The notes beneath the pieces were generated by a model. It had not been told where the DNA came from, searched no databases, and worked only from the letters and a program-made list of their open reading frames with translations. The translations under genes were made by a program, and so were the position numbers. 64,000 nucleotides of DNA from an uncultured Bacilli bacterium (GTDB lineage Bacteria > Bacillota_I > Bacilli_A > RF39 > UBA660), in NCBI GenBank assembly GCA_947627675.1, contig CANQWY010000002.1:108-64107 (forward strand), given 5' to 3'. Below are positions 2,327 through 51,139 of this stretch, piece by piece (within the stretch, counting starts at the first letter, position 1; every line of letters starts with the position of its first letter).

Positions 2327-2863
2327 CTATATTTTAAGAAAATATTTAATAGATAATAATAGTAATAAAGTACCACCAATTACATTAGCTTTGTTTTCTA
2401 CTTTGTTATTTATATATTTACCTATAGTCAAACCAGTTACAGTGAAAAGAAAACTAATTATAGAAAAAATTAAACTTGATAAATATGTATACTCATTTGT
2501 AAGTGATAAACCTAACCCTATTGTGAAACTATCAATACTTACTGTTATAGCAATTATTATTAAATATAAATAATTTATGTTTATATAGTTTTCTTTTTCT
2601 TTACTTGTAAATACTTCTATGCTTAATATTAAAAAAATTATTCCCAATATATAAGAAGAAATATGTTCTAAATTAAAAGATATTATAATACCGATATAAT
2701 TTCCAAGTAAGGGCATTATAAAATGTAATATACCTACAAGAACAGAAAAGAATATCATTTTTCTCTTATCTAATAAATTGCTAGTCGTCATGCAGATTGC
2801 TACTGAAAAAGCATCCATACTAAGTGCTATTGCTATTAAAAAATCAGTTATTATTTTATTCAT
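2327..2863 (-). CDS. mntP: Manganese efflux pump MntP family (DUF204) membrane protein
   Basis: 178 aa polytopic membrane protein with an N-terminal LSMDAFSVA motif, as in MntP/YebN. Confidence 0.65.
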   Translation of the reverse strand: MNKIITDFLIAIALSMDAFSVAICMTTSNLLDKRKMIFFSVLVGILHFIMPLLGNYIGIIISFNLEHISSYILGIIFLILSIEVFTSKEKENYININYLYLIIIAITVSIDSFTIGLGLSLTNEYTYLSSLIFSIISFLFTVTGLTIGKYINNKVENKANVIGGTLLLLLSIKYFLKI

Positions 2864-2914
2864 TGTTTCACCTAGTATAAATTTATTATTTATATTTTTA
2901 TTTATTCTTAATTT

Positions 2915-3448
2915 TTAATTTATATTTATATATTTATTTAAAATATCTTTTACCAATAAATGATATTCTATATCTTGTTCTTTTTCATCTTCATCTATTA
3001 AACAAAGTGGTGGAAACAATACGCACCAGAAATTCTGTCCTTCGCCTTTACCTAATTTTACTACAAGAGATTCATAATTACCATCTTGATATACTACATT
3101 TTTATATTCTTTTACCGGAAAGTAATTTTCACCATAATTAATATTATAGTCTATATTAGAATTATTTTCTTTTAAAGTTTTATTTATTGTATTTTCTAAT
3201 AAAGGCATTCCTTCTTTTATAGATTTTCTTACTTCTTCTAAACTATTTTTATTATTTAATAGACTTAAAATATCTTTATTTAAATTATCTTTTACTTTTA
3301 TTTTCAAATCTTGATCTTCTTTTGAATCTGAATTTGCTATTACTCTAAAACGTATAGATTCTTTTGGTATTATAACTTCTTCTTTGTTTAAATCGTTTGC
3401 AACAAATATTATTGTCAATAAAAATATGAATACAAATATTTTTCTCAT
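2915..3448 (-). CDS. spoIIR: Stage II sporulation protein R-like secreted protein
   Basis: Signal peptide followed by an IRFRVIANSDSKEDQDLKIKVKD motif that matches the conserved SpoIIR core (RLRILANSDS) as recalled from memory. Confidence 0.5.
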   Translation of the reverse strand: MRKIFVFIFLLTIIFVANDLNKEEVIIPKESIRFRVIANSDSKEDQDLKIKVKDNLNKDILSLLNNKNSLEEVRKSIKEGMPLLENTINKTLKENNSNIDYNINYGENYFPVKEYKNVVYQDGNYESLVVKLGKGEGQNFWCVLFPPLCLIDEDEKEQDIEYHLLVKDILNKYININ

Positions 3449-12680: not shown

Positions 12681-13190
12681 ATGAAAATATTAATTATAAT
12701 AGCATTATTTTGTTTTTTACTTTTATTAATAGTATGTACTACTATTTATTCTAAGAAAAAAGCTGATAAAATAGTATATAAAATCAATGAAGCTAAAGAT
12801 ACTATTTCTGAATATTTAGATAGAAATATTGCTATTCTAGATAGTAGTAAAGAGTATATTAATGATGATGCTTATTCTGAATCTTATGATAATATTTTTT
12901 TTGGGGGCATGAGTAGTAAAGAAACTTATCAAATTACTTGCAGATATAACTCTAAACTAAGAGAAAAGATCATGGAAAATGAAGAGCTGATAAAAAACAA
13001 AGATTTCTGCACATTAATTGATGAACTTGATGAAGTTAACAGCTATGTAGAAGGTGCAATAAAGTATTATTCTTTTTATGTTGATAAATATAAAGAAATT
13101 TTTAATAAATTTCCTGCTAAATTTATTAAATTTTTGTGTCATTATAAAAAATTTCATAATTATAAAGAAATAGATATGAGTACTTTATAA
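12681..13190 (+). CDS. Hypothetical membrane-anchored protein
   Basis: N-terminal TM helix. No confident family assignment. Confidence 0.3.
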   Translation: MKILIIIALFCFLLLLIVCTTIYSKKKADKIVYKINEAKDTISEYLDRNIAILDSSKEYINDDAYSESYDNIFFGGMSSKETYQITCRYNSKLREKIMENEELIKNKDFCTLIDELDEVNSYVEGAIKYYSFYVDKYKEIFNKFPAKFIKFLCHYKKFHNYKEIDMSTL

Positions 13191-13215: not shown

Positions 13216-13219
13216 AATT

Positions 13220-13233
13220 ATTTCCCGGGAAAT
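13220..13233. promoter_or_regulatory. Noc-binding-site-like palindrome (NBS) ATTTCCCGGGAAAT
   Basis: Exact match to the 14-bp B. subtilis NBS consensus, embedded in a 22-bp perfect palindrome AATTATTTCCCGGGAAATAATT. Confidence 0.6.
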
Positions 13234-13240
13234 AATTTTA

Positions 13241-24529: not shown

Positions 24530-25429
24530 TTATTTATCTAAATGCATTATTTCTAATAATCTATTTAAATCATTATTATTAGTAAAACTTATTTCTATTT
24601 TATTTTTCTTTATTTTTACTTTTGTACCAAGTCTTTCATTTAAACTTTCTTCAATATATTTATATGGATTTATTTTTTCTTCTTTTTTAGTAATTTTAAT
24701 CCTTTTTGGATATTCTTCATTATCTGTTGTAATACTTTCAATTTCTCTAACACTTAAGCCATCTGTTATTATTTTATCAGTTAATTCTTTTATTTGATAA
24801 ATATCATCTAATTTACTTAATACTCTTGCATGACTCATTGAAATTTTGTTTTCATTTATTAAATTTTGAGTTTCTTCTGGTAAATTCAAAAGTCCTAAAA
24901 TATTTGTAACATGAGATCTACTTTTTCCTAGTCTTGATGCTAATGTCTCCTGAGTTATATTTAAATTTTTTATTAAATTTTCATATGCTTTTGCTTCTTC
25001 TATTGCAGTTAGGTTTTCTCTTTGTAAATTTTCTAATAAAGCTATCTCCATCATTTCTGAATCTGAAAAATCTTTAACAATAGCTGGAATTTCTTCTAAA
25101 CCAGCTAGTAGGGATGCTTTAACTCTTCTTTCACCTGCAATTATTTCATAACCTTTAATACTTTTTTTGGCAATAATTGGCTGAAATACACCATGTTCTT
25201 TAATAGAAGCTGCTAATTCTTCTAATTTTTCTTCATCAAATACTTTTCGTGGCTGATATGGATTACTTCTTAATTCTTTTAATGGAATTTTTACGATTTC
25301 TTCTTTTGGAGTCTGCTCAATTATTTTTTCTTCAACTCTTGTATAATCGATTGGTTCACTATTAAATAATTCTTCTAGTCCTTTACCTAAGGCTTTTCTT
25401 TTAATATTATTCTGTTCCATTTCTATCAA
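24530..25429 (-). CDS. parB: Chromosome partitioning protein ParB/Spo0J
   Basis: ParB box II GERRVKAS, HTH region and C-terminal dimerisation domain. 299 aa. Immediately downstream of parA/soj. Confidence 0.85.
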   Translation of the reverse strand: MIEMEQNNIKRKALGKGLEELFNSEPIDYTRVEEKIIEQTPKEEIVKIPLKELRSNPYQPRKVFDEEKLEELAASIKEHGVFQPIIAKKSIKGYEIIAGERRVKASLLAGLEEIPAIVKDFSDSEMMEIALLENLQRENLTAIEEAKAYENLIKNLNITQETLASRLGKSRSHVTNILGLLNLPEETQNLINENKISMSHARVLSKLDDIYQIKELTDKIITDGLSVREIESITTDNEEYPKRIKITKKEEKINPYKYIEESLNERLGTKVKIKKNKIEISFTNNNDLNRLLEIMHLDK

Positions 25430-26195
25430 TCACTTCCTTTGCAAGATTTATATATGCTTCTGAACCTCTGCTTTTTGGATCGTAAGCAATAATTGGTTCA
25501 CCATGTGATGGTGCTTCTGTTAATCTTATTAGTCTAGGAATTATTGTATTATAAACTTTTTCTTTAAAAAATTTACGAATATCATCTACTACTTCAAATC
25601 CTAAATTTGTTCGCGAATCTAACATAGTTAATAAAACTCCTTCTATTTGAAGTGTAGGATTTAACGTTTTTTGAGCAAGCATTATAGTATTTAATAATTG
25701 CATTATTCCCTCTAATGCAAAAAATTCACATTGAACTGGTATAATAACAGAATCTGAAGCTGTTAAAGCATTAGTTGTAATTAAACCAAGAGAAGGAGGA
25801 CAATCAATTATAATATAATCAAATTGATTCTTTATTTTATCTAAGTTAATTTTTAATTGATTTCCTTTTTGATATCCAGGTTCTTGTTGACTTTTTTCTA
25901 AAAGTTCTATATCAAGGCCTGCTAAATTTATCGTTGCTGGCATTACTTGTAAATTTTTATATTTTGTTTTAATTATAGCTTTTTCTATACTACATTTTCC
26001 TATTAAAACGTCATATATGCTTTTATCAATATCAGCTTTATTTATTCCTACACCTGTTGTTGTATTACCCTGAGGATCTAAGTCTATTAATAAGACTTTT
26101 TTTCCTAATACTGCAAGAGATGCAGAAAGATTTATACTTGTAGTTGTTTTGCCTACGCCACCTTTTTGATTTACTAGTGCTATTGTCTTTCCCAT
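25407..26195 (-). CDS. parA: Chromosome partitioning ATPase ParA/Soj
   Basis: Deviant Walker A KGGVGKTT. 262 aa. Confidence 0.9.
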   Translation of the reverse strand: MGKTIALVNQKGGVGKTTTSINLSASLAVLGKKVLLIDLDPQGNTTTGVGINKADIDKSIYDVLIGKCSIEKAIIKTKYKNLQVMPATINLAGLDIELLEKSQQEPGYQKGNQLKINLDKIKNQFDYIIIDCPPSLGLITTNALTASDSVIIPVQCEFFALEGIMQLLNTIMLAQKTLNPTLQIEGVLLTMLDSRTNLGFEVVDDIRKFFKEKVYNTIIPRLIRLTEAPSHGEPIIAYDPKSRGSEAYINLAKEVIDRNGTE

Positions 26196-26310: not shown

Positions 26311-27804
26311 CTAGTAATTACTGTTTTTATCTATTCTTATTAATATTTGATATTGATTTTCAAAATTCATTTCATCAGTATCTATCTTAGCACCATGAAG
26401 TTCTAAGTTTTTTAAGGTTTTTCGTATTTCATCTACTATTTGTCTAATATTATATTCTTCTTCTCCATTCCTTTTATTATTATTTAAATTTTCATCCATT
26501 AGAACATTACCTAAAGATTTATTAGACTTATTTATTTTTTGTTCTTCTTTTATTGGTTTTTGAAATAATGTTTGGTTGATATCCACTAATGACTCTTTAT
26601 GGTCAGTAGTTGGCTTTGATGATTTAGCAAATTCTATTAAACTATTATTAGAAGCTGCTTGATTACTAAACATATCTCCAAGGTCTGATTTAGGTATTTC
26701 GCCTGTATTAGGTAACTCTATTGACATCAAATTAGGAGCTGAAAAATAATCTTCTTTGTTATTATAATTTTTATTTTCGCTTTCTCTCAATGCTTCTTCA
26801 GCTGGAGTAAATTTTTTATTATCTTCATTATTATCATTAACAAAAGTAGGTTTAATATTTAGTAAAGTATCTAAATCTGATTTATTATTAGATTCTGTTT
26901 TTGAATCTATTGAAGAATTTATATCTTCTAAATCTTTAGTATTGTTTCTTAAATCCATTAAATTTATCGGTTTAGATAGAAGTGAAGAATTGTCACCATT
27001 TAAATCAGGATATTTTTCATTTTCTTCTTCTTCATTATCAATTTCACCATAATTTATTATTTCGCTATTTTTAGAATCATTAGGAGGAGTCATTAAAAAA
27101 CTTGGCATCTTATTTAGATTATTACTTTCTATTGAAACTGGTGTTGGGTTTATGAGATTTTTTAAATCTTTTTCATCTTTTATCTTATCATCATTCATAT
27201 TAATTTCCTTTATCTCATTTTCTAATTGTCTTACTGTCATCTTTTGTTTTATCACTTTTTTTAACATTTCTACTTGTTTATCATGATCATTCAAATTTAG
27301 TAAAGTCCTAGCATGTCTCTCTGAAATTTCTTCTTTCAGTAAAGATTTTTGAACCTCTTCTGTCAAAGAAAGTAACCTTAATTTATTTGCAACTGCTGAC
27401 TGGCTTTTACCCATAGTTTTAGCTAAACCCTCTTGTGTCATATCATCAAGTTCTATTATTTTTTGATATGTTCTAGCTTCTTCTATTGGATTTAAATTTC
27501 TTCGTTGTAAATTTTCCAATAATGCTACTTTAGCAGCTTCCTTATCATCTAAATTTCTAATTATCGCAGGTATTGTTGTTAATCCAGCAAGTGCAGATGC
27601 TTTATATCTTCTTTCACCTGCAATTATTTCATATTTACTCTCACTTATTTTCCTTACTATTATAGGTTGTATAACACCATGTTCTTTGATAGATACTGCT
27701 AATTCTTTCAAAGCTTTTTCATCAAAGAGTTCACGAGGTTGAAATCTATTAGGTATTATATCATCCAGATGTATATATATTACTTCCTGATTATCATTCA
27801 TCAA
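26311..27804 (-). CDS. noc: Noc-like ParB paralog with long low-complexity C-terminal extension
   Basis: ParB N-domain with GERRYKAS box II and an HTH. It occupies the noc position (rsmG-noc-soj-spo0J order). 497 aa, with an N/D/E/K/S-rich tail of about 300 aa. It has no N-terminal amphipathic-helix extension. Confidence 0.65.
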   Translation of the reverse strand: MMNDNQEVIYIHLDDIIPNRFQPRELFDEKALKELAVSIKEHGVIQPIIVRKISESKYEIIAGERRYKASALAGLTTIPAIIRNLDDKEAAKVALLENLQRRNLNPIEEARTYQKIIELDDMTQEGLAKTMGKSQSAVANKLRLLSLTEEVQKSLLKEEISERHARTLLNLNDHDKQVEMLKKVIKQKMTVRQLENEIKEINMNDDKIKDEKDLKNLINPTPVSIESNNLNKMPSFLMTPPNDSKNSEIINYGEIDNEEEENEKYPDLNGDNSSLLSKPINLMDLRNNTKDLEDINSSIDSKTESNNKSDLDTLLNIKPTFVNDNNEDNKKFTPAEEALRESENKNYNNKEDYFSAPNLMSIELPNTGEIPKSDLGDMFSNQAASNNSLIEFAKSSKPTTDHKESLVDINQTLFQKPIKEEQKINKSNKSLGNVLMDENLNNNKRNGEEEYNIRQIVDEIRKTLKNLELHGAKIDTDEMNFENQYQILIRIDKNSNY

Positions 27805-41292: not shown

Positions 41293-43767
41293 ATGGCAGA
41301 TAGATTAGAAAAAAATAATATAGTACAAGAAGTTAAGGATTCATTTCTTGAATATTCAATGAGCGTTATTGTATCACGTGCTTTACCTGATTTAAGAGAT
41401 GGTTTAAAACCAGTACATAGACGTATTTTATATTCAATGGATGAATCTGGTTATACACCTGATAAACCTCATAAAAAGAGTGCTAGAATAGTAGGAGATG
41501 TAATGGGAAAATATCATCCTCATGGTGACTCTTCTATATATGAAGCAATGGTTAGAATGGCTCAAGATTTTTCTTATAGATATATGCTGGTTGATGGACA
41601 TGGTAATTTCGGAAATATTGAGGGTTATGGTGCCGCTGCAATGCGTTATACAGAATCTCGACTTTCTAAAATTTCTCTAGAACTTTTAAGAGATATTAAT
41701 AAAAATACTGTTAATTTTAGTCCAAATTTTGATGAAACTGAAAGAGAACCAGAAGTCCTTCCAGCTAGATTCCCTAATATTTTAGTAAACGGTGCAATGG
41801 GAATTGCAGTTGGAATGGCGACTAATATTCCTCCTCATAATTTAAGTGAAGTTATAGATGGTTGTGTTGCTTATATTGATAATCCTGATATTGATTTGGA
41901 TGGTTTGATGAAATATATTAAAGGACCAGATTTTCCAACAGGTGCTACAATATTAGGAAATAGTGGTATTAGAAAGGCTTATGAAACTGGTCGTGGTTCT
42001 ATAACTATTAGAAGCAAGGCAAGAATAGAGGAAGAAAATGGTAAACATTATATTATAGTCGATGAAGTTCCATATGGAGTTAACACACTTGAGCTAAAAA
42101 ATAAAGTTGCTGAACTTGTTCATAATAAAACAATAGAGGGAATTAGTGATTATCATACCGATTTGAAAGATGGAGTTAGAATAACAATAACTTTAAAAAG
42201 AGATGCAAATCCTCAAGTAGTTCTTAATAATTTATATAAACATACTTCCTTTCAAATTAATTATGGAATTATATTTTTAATGCTTGATCAAGGTGTTCCT
42301 AAAACTTTAGGTCTTAAAGATATTATAGTTAAGTATATTGATTATCAAAAAGAAGTTATAATTCGCCGTACTAGATTTGATTTGGATAAAGCTGAAAAGC
42401 GTGCCCATATCTTAGAAGGATTAAAAATAGCTTTAGATCATATAGATGATATTATAAAATTAATTAAATCTTCAAAGAGTGATGAAGAAGCTATGAAAGG
42501 TTTAATTAATAATTATAATTTAAGCGAAGCACAGGCCCAAGCTATTTTGGAAATGAAACTTAGAAGATTAACAGGATTAGAACGAAATAAAATCGAAAAT
42601 GAACTTAATGCTTTGCTTAAAGAAATAGAAGAACTAAAAGCCATATTAGCAAGCGATGAAAAAATTTTAAATATTATAAAAGAGGAAATGTTAGATATAA
42701 AAAGTAGATTTGGTGATGAAAGAAAAACTAATATTGATATGACTGCTATTGAATATATTGAAGACGAATCTTTAATTCCAGTTGATGATATTATAGTTAC
42801 ATTAACAAATAAAGGTTATATTAAACGTGTTAAAAGTGATGTTTATAGAACACAAAATCGTGGAGGAGTAGGAATTAAGGGTATGGCAACTAATGAAGAA
42901 GACTTTGTTGAGAGTTTAGTTAATATGAAGACTCACGATTATTTATTGTTTTTCTCAAATTTTGGTAGAGTTTATAGATTAAAAGGATACGAAATTCCTG
43001 AATTTGCTAGACAATCTAAAGGATTACCAATTATTAATTTACTATCTTTAGATAAAGAAGAAAAAATCAATTCAATGATAAATATTTCATCTGAAAATGA
43101 AAAAGTCAAATATTTAATTTTTGTAACAAAAAATGGTCTTGTAAAAAGAACACCTCTTAATGAATTTGATTCGATACGAACAAGCGGAAAAATTGCGATT
43201 ACTTTAAAAGACGATGATCAGCTAATTAGTGTTAGAAAAACTTCTGGAAATGATGAAATAATTATAGGTGCAAGTAATGGACGTATGGTTAGATTTAATG
43301 AAAATGAAGTTAGGTCAATGGGACGTACAGCAAGTGGAGTTAAAGGTATTGAATTAGATGAAAGTAATGTTGTTGGATCTGAAGTTGTGAAACCAAATCA
43401 ATATGTTTTGATTGTTACAGAAAAAGGCTATGGTAAACAAACTTTGATTGATGAATATAGATTGACTCATAGAGGAAGTAAAGGTGTAAAAGCACTAAAT
43501 ATGACAGATAAGAATGGTAGTATTGTGTCTTTAAAAACTATTGATAATATAGAAGAGGTAGACTTAATGATTATTACCAATAGTGGTGTTATAATGCGAA
43601 TGCCTTTATCTCAGGTATCTGTTTTAAAAAGAGCGACTCAAGGAGTTAGACTTATTAATTTAAAGGATGATCAAACTGTTTCAACTGTTGCAATAGTAGC
43701 TAAGGAAGAAAGTCAAGGCATTGATACTATTGAAGATGCTGATAATAAAGAGATTACTTCTGAATAG
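41293..43767 (+). CDS. gyrA: DNA gyrase subunit A
   Basis: 824 aa. Active-site Tyr region (AAMRYTE). QRDR-like motif [13 protein letters not shown]-terminal beta-pinwheel. Confidence 0.95.
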
Positions 43768-43840
43768 AAGTAATCATTTTTATTATATTAGTACATTTGA
43801 AATAATATAAATATTAGTTATTAGTTTACAAATAAGTAAA

Positions 43841-43885
43841 ATTGGCATACTTAAAAAGATCTAAATGGTATTTGGCATTGTCAAT
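43841..43885. repeat. Conserved ~45-bp motif, copy 1 (ATTGGCATACTTAAAAAGATCTAAATGGTATTTGGCATTGTCAA)
   Basis: About 80% identical to a second copy at 44615..44662. Function unknown. Confidence 0.4.
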
Positions 43886-44005
43886 TTTTGCAGGCTTCAA
43901 AGAAAAAACTCTTTTTAAGAGTAAATCTATTATAAACAAATGTTCTATTAAATTAAATTGATTTTCTAATTTACTTAGCAAAAATATCTTATATTTTATT
44001 TCTAT

Positions 44006-44034: not shown

Positions 44035-44614
44035 AAAATAGCTATAACATGGATGTATGAATTTTCATAATTTTAAATAAATATTAAATTTTTTTTATTA
44101 TGTTCCTACCACATAACATAATAAAAATCCCTGTTATGCTGGTGATAGTTGAAGAAGTGATAGCATTAGTGAAAAAACTAAATCACCTTTTGATATAATA
44201 GATAATGGTTTGCCAATCAAAATCTAAAATCAGAGGAGAATTTATTTTAGAGGCAAAAAAATGATAAAAGTTCATTTTTTCATGCGAGATGGAATTGTCA
44301 ATATCACCATGTATTATTAAATATACTCCAATATCTCTAATAAATTTTCTATATATTACCTTTCTTCTATATTTTGGTGTGAAGGCTATGTGAATATAAA
44401 GTAGTTGTAATAGTAAAAGTGCGGCATATCCAGATCATTATACATATGTTAGTAAAAATTCCACTAAAATTAGTGTATTATCTTTTATGAAATATTTAAA
44501 GGATAAGAATAGATAGATCAAATATATATGATTAAGATTTGGAAGATAAAATAAAAGATTAAAGAAGTTAGAATGAATAGACATGTTTACGGGTAAGTAA
44601 TAGTGACAAAGATA

Positions 44615-44662
44615 ATTGGTATATTAAAAAAGCTCTAAATGGTAGCTGGCACTGTCAAACTT
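44615..44662. repeat. Conserved ~45-bp motif, copy 2
   Basis: AATTGGTATATTAAAAAAGCTCTAAATGGTAGCTGGCACTGTCAAA aligns with copy 1. Confidence 0.4.
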
Positions 44663-44764
44663 TAATATAATAAATGAAATTGAGATGTTTTCATTGAATT
44701 ATATAGATATATTAATCATAATTTTATATGAATCTATAAATTATGTACAATATATAATTAAGTA

Positions 44765-45335
44765 AATTATTTCCCGGGAAATAATTTAAAACTTTTTATT
44801 TATAGAAATTTCAAATTTTAATTTTTTAATTAAAAATAATTTGATAACATTTTTTAAGAAATTAATTCATTTATAAAAATATTATCATTATTTAGTATTA
44901 ATAAAAAATATAAACTCAAACTTGATATTTTTTAAAGATTAACGTTTCACGTGAAACATTGTATTTTTTTCTTATTCTTATCATTAAATTTTTTTAGGAT
45001 ATTATTTCCCGGGAAATAATTTAAAACTTTTTATTTATAGAAATTTCAAATTTTAATTTTTTAATTAAAAATAATTTGATAATATTTTTTAAGAAATCAA
45101 TTCATTTATAAAAATATTATCATTATTTAGTATTAATAAAAAATATAAATTCAAACTTGATATTTTTTAAAGATTAACGTTTCACGTGAAACATTGTATT
45201 TTTTTCTTATTCTTATTATTAAGTTTTTTTAGGATATTATTTCCCGGGAAATAATTTAAATAATTATAATGTTTCACGTGAAACATAAAGAAATAAGCAG
45301 TTATTAAATAAAAAAAATATTTCCCGGGAAATATT
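44765..45335. repeat. 235-bp direct tandem repeat (2 full units + partial) carrying alternating NBS and parS palindromes
   Basis: NBS ATTTCCCGGGAAAT at 44769, 45004, 45239 and 45319. parS at 44943 and 45178 (CGTTTCACGTGAAACA, 15/16) and at 45270 (TGTTTCACGTGAAACA, 16/16). Unit period is exactly 235 bp with near-identical units. Confidence 0.85.
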
Positions 45336-45391
45336 TTGAAATAGATAATATAAATAAATTGCTTTTTTTAATAGTTTATTATAAAATGTAA

Positions 45392-45473
45392 TCGTGCAAT
45401 AAATTTATGTGGAAACAGGTCAGGATCGGAAGATAGCAGCCTTAACACAATAGATTTATGTGCACTTTTTTTT
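45392..45473 (+). ncRNA. ffs: Signal recognition particle RNA (small 4.5S-type SRP RNA)
   Basis: Conserved domain IV sequence CAGGUCAGGAUCGGAAGAUAGCAGCC flanked by a pairing helix (GTGCAATAAATTTATGTGG / CACAATAGATTTATGTGCAC) and a T8 run. Located next to tadA and dnaX, as in Bacillus. Confidence 0.6.
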
Positions 45474-45987: not shown

Positions 45988-47649
45988 ATGTATCAAACGT
46001 TATATAGAAAATATAGATCTAAAAAATTTTCTGAACTAGTTGGACAAGACGTTATTGTTAAAACATTAAAAAACTCTATAAAAAACGAAAAAATTTCACA
46101 TGCATATTTATTTGTAGGTCCACGAGGAACAGGAAAAACTTCAACTGCTAAAATATTCGCGAGAGCTGTAAATTGCTTAGATAATGATGCTGGAGAAATT
46201 TGCGGAAAATGTTCTATGTGCAATATATCAAATAGTAGCGAATGTTTAGATATTATAGAAATAGATGCTGCTTCTAATAATGGTGTAGATGAAATAAGAA
46301 ATTTAAGAGATAAAGTTAATTTAGTTCCTAATCAACTTAAATATAAAGTATATATTATTGATGAAGTACATATGTTAACTATCCAAGCTTTTAATGCTTT
46401 ATTAAAAACACTGGAAGAACCACCAGAACATATTATATTTATATTGGCAACTACTGATATACAAAAAGTTCCGGAAACTATTATATCTAGATGTCAATGT
46501 TTTAATTTTTCTAGAATGACACAACAAAATATAATAGATAATTTATCTAAAATATGTAATGAGGAAAAAATTAATATAGATTTAGAAGTACTAAAGCAAA
46601 TTTCATTAGCTGCTGATGGCGGAATGAGAGATGCACTGAGTATTTTAGATAAGTTAATTTCATATGGTGAAGATAATATAAAATTAGATGATTTTTTACA
46701 ACTTAATGGTCTAGTTACAGTAACTGAAATAGAAAGTTTTATAAACTATATTTTTTCTAAGGACGTAAAAAATGTTATTGATCAAATATGCGATTGGAAT
46801 TTAAAAGGTAAAAATTTAATTCAAATTATGATGCAATCATTAGAATATTTAAAGGATAAATTAATTAGAGCATATACAGATAATAATGATATTAATACTA
46901 ATAAATATCAAATGCTTGCAAATTTATTGAATGAAAAAATGATAAATATTAAAAAAAGTTCTAATCCTAATATTTATATTGAAATTATTCTTTTAGATTT
47001 TATTTCTTCACTTAATAATGAGTTAAATATTTCCCGGGAAATAATTCCAGAAAAAAGTTCGAGTGATAATAATGTTTCACGTGAAACATTATTAGAATCA
47101 AAAAATACAATTAACTACAAACAAATAGAAAAAAAAGATATTACTAACTCTTTAGATGAACAAAATAGTAATATAAGAGATATAATGAATGTTAGAATAA
47201 ATAATACTTTTATAGATGCAACAAAAAACGAACTAAAACAAATGATAAATGAATTTAGTAAATTAAATGATTATGTTTTTGATCAAAATATTGGTTATTT
47301 AGTTTGTGCATTATTAGAAGGAAAGATTAGATTAAGTAGTTCTGAATATATAGTAATAAGTTATGAATATGACTCAGTAGTAAGTACAAATATTGTTAAT
47401 TATCAGAAAATGGAATCTGTTTTAAAAGATATACTTAATATAAATAAAAAAATTGCAATTATTTCTGATTCTGATTGGAATAAGGTTGCAAAAGATTTTA
47501 TAGAAAATAAGAAAAATAACATTAGTTATGAATATATAGAAGAACCAGAACTATTGTTTGATAAAACAAAAAAAATAGAAAATAATACAAATAATAAAAA
47601 TAATGATAGCATTTCAGATGTATTTGGTGATATAGTAGAAATATACTAA
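45988..47649 (+). CDS. dnaX: DNA polymerase III subunit tau (single-product, gamma/tau)
   Basis: AAA+ GPRGTGKTS. Zinc module CGKCSMC. 553 aa. Position before ybaB-recR. Confidence 0.9.
   Translation: MYQTLYRKYRSKKFSELVGQDVIVKTLKNSIKNEKISHAYLFVGPRGTGKTSTAKIFARAVNCLDNDAGEICGKCSMCNISNSSECLDIIEIDAASNNGVDEIRNLRDKVNLVPNQLKYKVYIIDEVHMLTIQAFNALLKTLEEPPEHIIFILATTDIQKVPETIISRCQCFNFSRMTQQNIIDNLSKICNEEKINIDLEVLKQISLAADGGMRDALSILDKLISYGEDNIKLDDFLQLNGLVTVTEIESFINYIFSKDVKNVIDQICDWNLKGKNLIQIMMQSLEYLKDKLIRAYTDNNDINTNKYQMLANLLNEKMINIKKSSNPNIYIEIILLDFISSLNNELNISREIIPEKSSSDNNVSRETLLESKNTINYKQIEKKDITNSLDEQNSNIRDIMNVRINNTFIDATKNELKQMINEFSKLNDYVFDQNIGYLVCALLEGKIRLSSSEYIVISYEYDSVVSTNIVNYQKMESVLKDILNINKKIAIISDSDWNKVAKDFIENKKNNISYEYIEEPELLFDKTKKIENNTNNKNNDSISDVFGDIVEIY
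47029..47088. promoter_or_regulatory. NBS (47029-47042) + perfect parS (47073-47088) pair embedded in-frame in the dnaX coding sequence
   Basis: ATTTCCCGGGAAAT and TGTTTCACGTGAAACA (inside the 26-bp perfect palindrome AATAATGTTTCACGTGAAACATTATT), separated by 30 bp. Encodes ...NISREIIPEKSSSDNNVSRETLL... in the variable linker of tau. Confidence 0.75.
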
Positions 47650-48601: not shown

Positions 48602-48787
48602 ATGAAAAAAATATTAGAAATATTAAAGAAAATAGTATTTAGTTCTTTTCTTTTATATGGTTATAATCTTATTGCTAGTAATTTTAATTTAATAATTCCA
48701 ATAAATATTATTACAATATTTATTGTTACGTTATTAGGAGCTCCTGGTTTGTTTGCATTAATACTTTTTAAAGTTACTGTTTTGTAA
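48602..48787 (+). CDS. bofA: BofA-like small membrane protein (pro-sigma-K processing inhibitor family)
   Basis: 61 aa. The C-terminal IIPINIITIFIVTLLGAPGLFALI resembles the BofA conserved C-terminus as recalled. Lies after recR, as in B. subtilis. Confidence 0.45.
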   Translation: MKKILEILKKIVFSSFLLYGYNLIASNFNLIIPINIITIFIVTLLGAPGLFALILFKVTVL

Positions 48788-49648: not shown

Positions 49649-50427
49649 AAAATGTAGAAGTGATGATAGAGGGTAGTAATGATAAGATTTTTTGCAATAG
49701 TAATATTGATTTAGTAAAAGGAGATCAAGTAATTGTTTCAATAAATAATATTTTATATAATGGATATGTAGTTTTAGAGGCTGATATTGATAATTCTAAT
49801 TCTAATAATGTTGTTAGAAAGGTTAATATAAAAGATATTAATATTATAGAAAAAAATCGTAAAGATTGTATTAATGCTCTGGAAGAGGTTAAAAAAATTT
49901 CAAAAAAGTTAAATCTATTTATGAGCTTTGTTGATTGCTATTATACGTTTGATAGAAAACAATTATATTTTACATTTGTTGCTGATAATAGAGTAGATTT
50001 TAGAGAATTGGCAAAAAGATTAGCTGAAAAATATAAAACAAGGATTGAACTAAGACAGATTGGAATACGTGATAAAGCAAAGAAAATAGGAGGGTTAGGA
50101 CCTTGTGGTCTATTTTTATGTTGTAATAAATTTTTGAATGATTTTAATAGTGTCTCTATCAATATGGCTAAGAATCAATTTTTAGCTTTAAATCCTTCCA
50201 AAATCAATGGATTATGTGGTAGATTATTATGTTGCTTGAAGTATGAAGATTTTCAATATAAAGAATTAAAACAAGGTGCTCCTAGTATTGGCTCTTATTA
50301 TGAAACTGAAAAAGGTAAAGGAAAAGTAATAAGTATAGATATTTTTAAGAATACTTGTAATATTGAGTTAGATGATAAAAGCATTATTGTAGCTAATTAT
50401 GGTGAAAAAGATGAAAGTACTAAATGA
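49645..50427 (+). CDS. ricT: PSP1-domain regulator RicT (YaaT)
   Basis: 260 aa. PSP1 C-terminal domain with conserved Cys cluster (GPCGLFLCC...GLCGRLLCC). Confidence 0.75.
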   Translation: MKNVEVMIEGSNDKIFCNSNIDLVKGDQVIVSINNILYNGYVVLEADIDNSNSNNVVRKVNIKDINIIEKNRKDCINALEEVKKISKKLNLFMSFVDCYYTFDRKQLYFTFVADNRVDFRELAKRLAEKYKTRIELRQIGIRDKAKKIGGLGPCGLFLCCNKFLNDFNSVSINMAKNQFLALNPSKINGLCGRLLCCLKYEDFQYKELKQGAPSIGSYYETEKGKGKVISIDIFKNTCNIELDDKSIIVANYGEKDESTK

Positions 50428-51139
50428 AATTTTAGATTATAATATGAAAATATACCAAGATAATGATTGGTTTTGTTTTTCAATTGATAGTATAATTCTT
50501 GCTAATTTTTTAAATATAAGGCAGCGGGCAAAAAAAATACTAGATTTAGGTACAGGTAATGCAATTATTCCATTAATTTTATCACGCAGAACTAATTCAA
50601 TAATCGAAGGAGTTGAAATACAAAAAGATTTAGTTGATCTTGCTAACAATTCTATAAAATATAATAAATTAGAAGATAGAATAAAAATATATAATTGTGA
50701 TATAAAAGAATTTGGTAAAAATAAAAAATTGTATAATACATATGATATTATTGTGTGTAATCCCCCTTATTTTAAAAAAAATGCTAATAGCATTAAAAAT
50801 TTAGATGTACATAAAGCTATTGCCAGGCATGAGATGTGTATTACTCTCGAAGATATTTTCCAAGTGGCTTTCAATTTATTAAAAGAAGGTGCCGTTTATG
50901 CAACTGTAAATAGAGTTGATAGATTTGTAGAAATAATGGAATTATTTAAAAAATATAAATTTGAAGTTAAATATATTAGATTTGTTTATGACAATGTAGA
51001 CTCTAAGCCAAGTTTATTCTATATTGAAGGGATAAAATGCGGTAATTCAGGACTTATCATTGATAGACCATTTATTATGTATGACAAAAATAATATTGAA
51101 ACTGACGAATATAAAAAAATAAAAGAAGGTAAAATATAA
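50399..51139 (+). CDS. tRNA (adenine37-N6)-methyltransferase-like (YabB/TrmN6 family)
   Basis: SAM motif LDLGTGNA and the CNPPYF catalytic motif. Confidence 0.7.
   Translation: MVKKMKVLNEILDYNMKIYQDNDWFCFSIDSIILANFLNIRQRAKKILDLGTGNAIIPLILSRRTNSIIEGVEIQKDLVDLANNSIKYNKLEDRIKIYNCDIKEFGKNKKLYNTYDIIVCNPPYFKKNANSIKNLDVHKAIARHEMCITLEDIFQVAFNLLKEGAVYATVNRVDRFVEIMELFKKYKFEVKYIRFVYDNVDSKPSLFYIEGIKCGNSGLIIDRPFIMYDKNNIETDEYKKIKEGKI

Follow-up and report, generated by a model that had tools for sequence, protein, structure and literature searches.

Why would an essential gene of the replisome carry two chromosome-organisation sites within its coding sequence? The question is raised by dnaX in the origin (oriC) region of an uncultured Bacilli bacterium with 25% GC, represented here by 64,000 nucleotides of contig CANQWY010000002.1 (assembly GCA_947627675.1), a stretch referred to below as the window. 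The linker of the encoded DNA polymerase III tau subunit contains a Noc-binding site (NBS) and a parS site, both palindromic and both read in frame. We conclude that these palindromes are very probably cis-acting chromosomal sites set in coding DNA, the NBS serving a Noc-type paralogue of ParB and the parS serving ParB/Spo0J, and that they are the genic members of a cluster of such sites. The sites, their conservation at the DNA level, the syntenic cluster to which they belong and the presence of the two proteins with their specificity residues were read directly from the sequences. The gene and its sites are as follows.

45988-47649, plus strand: dnaX, DNA polymerase III tau, 553 residues (NCBIfam NF004046, 489 bits)
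47028-47043, within dnaX: NBS, the 16-bp palindrome TATTTCCCGGGAAATA, 16/16 against the published consensus
47067-47094, within dnaX: perfect 28-bp palindrome enclosing the parS, read as NNVSRETLL

Sequence searching located an exact ATTTCCCGGGAAAT at 47029-47042 and an exact parS, TGTTTCACGTGAAACA (16/16), at 47073-47088, separated by 30 bp and with starts 44 bp apart. This confirmed the sequence-only reading, which had described this pair in the tau linker in frame; the perfect palindrome around parS, given there as 26 bp, measured 28 bp. The NBS forms codons 348-352 (ATT TCC CGG GAA ATA, read ISREI) and the parS core is spelt GTT TCA CGT GAA ACA (VSRET), so that the two sites read ...LNISREIIPEKSSSDNNVSRETLLE... 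with the frame undisturbed. The published 16-bp NBS consensus TATTTCCC-GGGAAATA is palindromic and the dnaX NBS agrees with it, and TGTTTCACGTGAAACA is the published parS consensus (PMC7383237). Our census of NBS and parS in this genome covered the 64-kb window, nearly the full length of the contig. Allowing up to 2 mismatches, 6 NBS were observed where 0.13 were expected and 4 parS where 0.01 were expected, and no shuffled sequence matched either count. The dnaX parS is one of two perfect parS in the window. The sites are not an assembly artefact, as a separate metagenome assembly (L081) holds the identical sequence.

To place the sites within the protein, DnaX was aligned with 30 relatives. 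Both lie past domain III at the start of the linker, which is hypervariable in length and sequence among orthologues save for a near-invariant K-I-I-S-R-E-I-I-S. The nearest DnaX relatives, from metagenome-assembled genomes (MAGs) of uncultured "Bacilli bacterium" in gut and rumen samples, share just 63-65% identity. Among the best 120 relatives (49-100% identity), ISREI was present in the same codon column, at residues ~345-353, in 90. Orthologous dnaX DNA was obtained by exact-protein look-up, giving 10 distinct sequences including that of the window (52-100% protein identity). Nine of these carried an exact NBS in frame 0 with the codons ATT TCC CGG GAA ATA, and in the tenth, L087, the NBS was lost. 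Across the nine, ISREI was the longest codon-invariant run of dnaX, against a background in which a single codon was retained in just 42 of 156 amino-acid-invariant degenerate columns. In the DNA alignment the NBS appeared as an invariant island of 16 nt within a stretch whose mean column identity was 63%.

Near-invariant residues in an otherwise variable linker would also be seen if ISREI, along with VSRET, were a functional peptide motif of tau and the palindromes were incidental. Codon usage points the other way. CGG makes up 2 of the 567 Arg codons in the window's open reading frames (ORFs) (0.4%), one of the two being in ISREI, and TCC accounts for 28 of 1200 Ser codons (2.3%); the probability of ISREI being spelt this way from codon usage alone was 1.6e-5. 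These same rare codons were found in every lineage. The peptide was also not kept once a single nucleotide broke the palindrome: broken forms in the relatives are single-nucleotide steps (ISQEI, ISWEI, ISRKI) followed by peptide drift, and in lineages without the NBS motif ISREI was unrecognisable. In addition, the same 16-22-mer recurs in non-coding arrays, described below.

Reading frame gave a further discrimination. As a distant set we used 57 full-length dnaX genes from the metagenome loci listed, with 36-51% identity to that of the window, and found an exact NBS in the linker of 17. Thirteen of these were read as (I)ISREI(I), whereas in four (L111, L159, L161, L201) the same DNA was read in another frame as NYFPGN(N); each of the four is one uninterrupted ORF of 524-549 codons that aligns with DnaX on both sides of the site. 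Because one DNA sequence is read in two frames, a protein-level role of ISREI is excluded as the cause of the conservation, and on the codon usage and the two frames we rejected the peptide-motif explanation, which has next to no chance of being correct. Invariant rare codons and two reading frames together indicate that selection on the NBS in dnaX acts on the DNA and not on the peptide. Strong selection at this chromosomal coordinate, as had been proposed for the site pair, was therefore supported at least for the NBS (synonymous positions, rarest codons, two frames, a large clade). Orthologues were also inspected for the same residues without the palindromes; they have both the residues and the palindrome, and the proposal survives.

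The dnaX pair does not stand alone. The gene order around it and the further sites are given here.

Minus strand: rsmG, the Noc-type gene, soj, spo0J
Plus strand: dnaA (34702), dnaN, recF, gyrB, gyrA (ending at 43767)
After gyrA: 1.7 kb of non-coding DNA, the signal recognition particle (SRP) RNA gene (45390-45471), tadA, dnaX, ybaB, recR
44758-45337, between gyrA and the SRP RNA gene: interleaved intergenic array of two 235-bp tandem units and a short terminal unit
44769, 45004, 45239 and 45319: array NBS
44943 and 45178 (15/16 each) and 45270 (16/16): array parS
13216-13237, between a convergent ORF (12681-13190) and ung: solitary NBS, the 22-bp palindrome AATTATTTCCCGGGAAATAATT

NBS and parS alternate strictly along the array. 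With the dnaX pair included, the cluster holds five of the six window NBS and all four parS in 2.3 kb, lying 10-12.4 kb to the right of the dnaA start with the dnaX parS at 12.4 kb. The NBS at 13216-13237 is the only one in the window outside this gyrA-dnaX cluster, and it is immediately preceded by a terminator-like hairpin. In dnaX the two sites are separated by 30 bp; in the array, 17 bp (45252 to 45270) separate NBS from parS in the last unit and 160 bp in each long unit. The dnaX pair had been likened to the last array unit; the order is indeed the same, but the "similar" spacing holds only loosely (30 vs 17 bp).

To ask how widespread this arrangement is, metagenome sequences were scanned for exact NBS-N(12-42)-parS pairs, a search that returned at least 120 stretches and selected them by their arrays, not by dnaX. 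The neighbourhood gyrA-[array]-tadA-dnaX-ybaB-recR-holB was found in 114 of the 120 listed stretches with an exact pair. The interleaved NBS/parS cluster between gyrA and dnaX is a hallmark of the lineage. In L081, whose DnaX protein is identical to that of the window, the array has one 235-bp unit fewer and the gyrA-tadA spacer is shorter by 235 bp. Much denser upstream arrays than that of the window were seen in two loci of the 46-50% DnaX identity class whose dnaX has no site: L001 (positions 1-450) has 7 NBS with a period of ~62 bp, and L002 (positions 2600-3320, on a complete 1.52-Mb MAG chromosome) has 6 NBS and 6 parS with a period of ~125 bp.

The history of the parS was followed in the same DnaX relatives. 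VSRET was present in the linker of six of the best 120 (P0003, P0004, P0010, P0011 and P0043 among them), and the DNA of L084 has an exact parS in dnaX in the same frame as in the window. Many sister lineages have VSHET at this place, which corresponds to parS with its central CG changed to CA. In a neighbour-joining tree of the DnaX sequences built without the linker, NBS-bearing sequences spanned almost the whole tree, and intact and relic parS were limited to the subclade that holds the window's organism. Since intact and relic forms are confined to one subclade, the dnaX parS appears to have been inherited within it and not newly inserted, under a constraint weaker than that on the NBS. 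In two DnaX relatives, P0083 and P0093, the N-terminal zinc module contains VSRET (residue 80), which suggests a putative parS at a second position of dnaX.

Is the pair a unit? The sequence-only reading had suggested a compound module with the same order and similar spacing as the last array unit, and our comparisons did not bear out a fixed order or spacing. From start to start the two sites are 44 bp apart in the window but 53 bp apart in L084, the dnaX of L109 has the parS ahead of the NBS, the linker of L005 dnaX has two parS and that of L196 two NBS, and most relatives have the NBS alone. Other NBS-parS pairs were looked for as well and were abundant in the metagenome loci, but they lie within the upstream intergenic arrays; among the 207 metagenome pairs listed, only that of L109 falls far within a real gene, once more dnaX. 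Counted over 129 loci with 324 exact NBS and 382 exact parS, 28 sites fall well within long ORFs, 24 of them in dnaX. Open frames of ~100 codons running across the arrays of L116, L127 and L157 were not counted as genic; in repeats with so few stop codons as these arrays, they were taken as chance. The variable order and spacing imply that there is no rigid NBS-parS module; dnaX instead looks like an essential gene with a tolerant stretch that repeatedly hosts members of the nearby cluster.

The four remaining genic sites are three NBS in a yabB-like methyltransferase gene and one parS in tadA. In the methyltransferase (L016:8806, L017:8713, L130:334) the in-frame NBS is read NYFPGNNFDI, just ahead of the NPPF motif. 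These three loci are distant relatives, and the orthologue in the window (50399-51139) is without the NBS. The exact parS in tadA (L123:6318) is in frame (NVSRET) toward the 3' end of the gene.

These distributions also bear on the idea that a small in-frame palindromic mobile element like those of Rickettsia, a segment of ~25 codons bearing NBS and parS, was inserted into dnaX. Rickettsia palindromic elements (RPEs) are mobile repeats of 100-150 bp found in many genes, with presence/absence polymorphism. The resemblance lies in palindromic DNA translated in frame, and it is helped by the occurrence of both sites in the nearby tandem array, by an array copy number that varies between samples and by the highly variable length of the linker among orthologues. 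A few flanking A/T bases are common to the dnaX and array copies. The repeat stops, however, at the protein-binding cores, and the 30 bp between the dnaX sites have no counterpart in the array. Among orthologues, nothing but the 16-nt core is held in common, and the sequence on either side of it and in the spacer is unrelated. Unlike RPEs, the dnaX sites are 16-28 bp long, positionally orthologous and almost exclusive to dnaX, where 24 of the 28 genic sites fall instead of being dispersed over genes. In 90 of the 120 orthologues the NBS keeps one alignment column and one reading frame, the parS dates back to the ancestor of its subclade and decays by point mutation, and spacing and order differ between loci with unrelated sequence between the sites. 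A mobile-element insertion was rejected on the orthologous NBS column, the point decay of parS and the bias of genic sites to dnaX, and we regard it as extremely unlikely.

A different reading takes the NBS alone as functional and the dnaX parS as a redundant, near-neutral remnant, so that the pair has no joint meaning. It agrees with the few intact copies among close relatives and the VSHET relics in many sisters, with the presence of three further parS 1.8-2.1 kb upstream, and with the unconserved spacing and order of the pair. It agrees less well with a parS that is one of the two perfect copies in the window and sits in a 28-bp palindrome, longer than its core needs. Intact in-frame parS also occur in distant dnaX genes (two in L005, one in L109), and NBS and parS interleave throughout the arrays of the lineage. 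On balance we consider this reading unlikely, though it is a serious alternative for the parS.

Selection could also act on the RNA, with hairpins in the dnaX mRNA pausing ribosomes or promoting a frameshift that yields a short, gamma-like product. In E. coli, dnaX has a programmed -1 frameshift (tau/gamma) at the border of domain III and the linker, and the two genes are alike in having a structured element at that border, the sites lying where E. coli makes gamma. The segment can fold with a 12-bp hairpin at parS (minimum free energy -16.3 kcal/mol, z = -2.9), and an A6G run 10 nt upstream of it (47050-47066, GAA AAA AGT TCG AGT GA) leads in the -1 frame to a TGA after 3 codons. Yet the run does not fit the X XXY YYZ register and is missing from orthologues, off-frame stops are frequent at 25% GC, and its position near the parS hairpin is probably chance. 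In contrast to E. coli, no conserved slippery heptamer is present, and the conserved element is a putative protein-binding DNA palindrome. This element is the NBS and not the stronger hairpin at parS, and the conservation is accounted for, with no need of RNA, by the identical motifs in non-coding arrays and the DNA-binding proteins that match them. The frameshift or hairpin explanation was rejected because the NBS alone is conserved, and it seems to us very improbable.

Are proteins that could read the two sites encoded nearby? The window contains the following candidates.

24530-25429, minus strand: ParB/Spo0J, presumed parS reader, 299 residues; best PDB match B. subtilis Spo0J
25407-26195, minus strand: ParA/Soj ATPase, with ParA-family matches
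26311-27804, minus strand: Noc-type ParB paralogue, presumed NBS reader, 497 residues, with an N-terminal domain of the CTP-binding ParB_N type and an HTH_ParB DNA-binding domain

The 299-residue protein has a parS-type Arg at the equivalent of Caulobacter R173 and an N-terminal KRKALGKGLEEL motif for ParA interaction. Its ParB_C dimerisation domain was marginal (23.6 bits, under the curated cut-off of 23.8). With its gene adjoining soj, it has the features of the canonical ParB.

The best PDB matches of the 497-residue protein are Noc structures, and its gene adjoins rsmG near soj-spo0J. At the specificity positions (equivalents of Q173, K179/K184 and R201) it has Q-K-S-R, compared with Q-K-K-R in the Noc type. 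One permissive Lys is enough for NBS specificity (PMC7383237). Q-K-x-R was retained in 119 of 120 relatives of the protein. The ORF begins 16 residues ahead of PNRFQPR with stops directly upstream, leaving no N-terminal membrane helix, and a membrane-targeting helix was absent from the N-terminus of the window protein and of all 120 relatives examined. A low-complexity insert of ~250 residues precedes a conserved domain at the C-terminus. The architecture is common to all 120 relatives (450-535 residues), some of them on contigs of ~1.3 Mb.

Several observations weigh against our interpretation of the dnaX palindromes as sites for these two proteins. An NBS was absent from 40 of the 57 distant dnaX genes, so some lineages can do without it. 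With intact parS in just 6 of the 120 close relatives, this site could be nearly neutral, the upstream array making it redundant. The Noc-type protein scored 294.9 bits against NCBIfam TIGR04285 (Noc), under the cut-off of 315. In B. subtilis, nucleoid occlusion needs an N-terminal amphipathic helix (PMC8429893). Given the score under the cut-off and the missing helix, classical nucleoid occlusion may not apply to this protein. Occupancy of the dnaX NBS by the Noc-type protein and of the dnaX parS by ParB is inferred.

Taking the palindromes as cis-acting sites, a mechanism can be proposed. The sites would be tolerated in dnaX because the linker past domain III of tau is poorly constrained, and the DNA motif would dictate the peptide, IISREII in one frame and NYFPGNNF in another. 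The NBS would be old, ancestral to a large clade of uncultured Bacilli and held by strong purifying selection on the DNA, and the parS would have a single origin in the ancestor of the window's subclade, under weaker selection and with frequent decay. As the NBS would be ancestral to the clade and the parS only to the subclade, their pairing would reflect co-localisation in a cluster and be neither a fixed nor a mobile module. More speculatively, the genic NBS may have lasted so long because tandem arrays gain and lose units, as the L081 difference illustrates, and deletion of a unit could not remove a site inside an essential gene.

By analogy with the biochemistry of the B. subtilis and Caulobacter proteins, each protein would nucleate on its own palindrome, bind cytidine triphosphate (CTP), close as a clamp and slide to flanking DNA (PMC7383237, PMC8429893). 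Both clamps together would produce a nucleoprotein domain of mixed composition immediately to the right of oriC. As in B. subtilis, loaded ParB would recruit SMC and interact with Soj, and the helix-less Noc-type clamp may organise or mark the origin domain rather than tether DNA to the membrane. This can be extended to a two-clamp origin system, in which ParB and the helix-less Noc-type paralogue of ~500 residues are loaded side by side at interleaved sites by oriC, with the Noc-type protein acting to organise or mark the origin domain or to link it with the expression of tau. We regard this extension as doubtful. Under it, the NBS in dnaX would be unique in being safe from array contraction, since it lies inside an essential gene, and these bacteria could preserve a living intermediate in the divergence of Noc from ParB.

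Both kinds of intragenic site, parS and NBS, are known in B. subtilis. Several of its parS were reportedly placed inside genes, spo0J among them, by Lin and Grossman in 1998 and by Livny in 2007. The B. subtilis parS share with those described here the TGTTTCACGTGAAACA palindrome, a location near the origin that can be intragenic, and a ParB encoded by soj. They differ in that the sites here are interleaved with NBS at 17-174 bp, extend into the dnaX linker and, for all four found in the window, lie within 2.2 kb. Reports on the Noc-binding sites of B. subtilis and S. aureus include those of Wu (2009), Pang (2017) and Jalal (2020 and 2021). The NBS of B. subtilis and S. aureus share the consensus TATTTCCCGGGAAATA with those of the window, where a Noc-type paralogue with the Q/K/R residues is encoded between rsmG and soj. 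Those species have their NBS dispersed along the chromosome arms, and their Noc has an N-terminal membrane helix (PMC5540599, PMC7383237, PMC8429893). Here, in contrast, the NBS are clustered by parS near oriC and one is fixed in dnaX across a large clade. B. subtilis has its sites on the arms and none near the terminus (ter); within the 64-kb window, five of the six are clustered and one is solitary. The Noc-type protein differs from Noc of the model species in its ~500 residues, its long low-complexity insert and its lack of the N-terminal helix.

Uptake signal sequences (USS) and DNA uptake sequences (DUS) in the coding regions of Pasteurellaceae and Neisseria bias the encoded peptides. They too are DNA motifs with a non-coding function that occupy tolerant parts of proteins in preferred frames and impose their peptides. 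USS and DUS occur, however, as hundreds to thousands of dispersed copies per genome, whereas the NBS described here occupies one orthologous position in an essential gene over deep divergence. Our literature search found no report of an NBS fixed at one dnaX position clade-wide and imposing a peptide in two frames, none of alternating NBS/parS arrays near the origin that are syntenic across more than 100 metagenome loci, and none of a clade-wide Noc-type protein without a membrane helix.

If our interpretation is correct, a chromosome-organisation site can override coding freedom in an essential replisome gene over deep time, here as a 16-22-bp palindrome held with the rarest codons and in two frames. 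Annotation of these DnaX proteins would then need caution, as ISREI would be a DNA footprint and not a protein motif. The oriC-side interleaving of NBS and parS, together with an anchor-less Noc-type paralogue, is an unstudied arrangement in abundant uncultured Bacilli of the gut and rumen. It raises the question of what role Noc had ancestrally after the duplication of ParB, and whether a pair of CTP-dependent clamps that load within tens of bp of each other act cooperatively or insulate one another.

Two further features of the region were observed. A homologue of bofA (61 residues) lies behind recR at 48602-48787, as it does in most relatives, which hints that the lineage may retain sporulation-related genes. 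Between gyrA and the array, a 50-nt direct repeat (43840-43889 and 44614-44663, 82% identical) brackets ~0.7 kb of apparently non-coding DNA.

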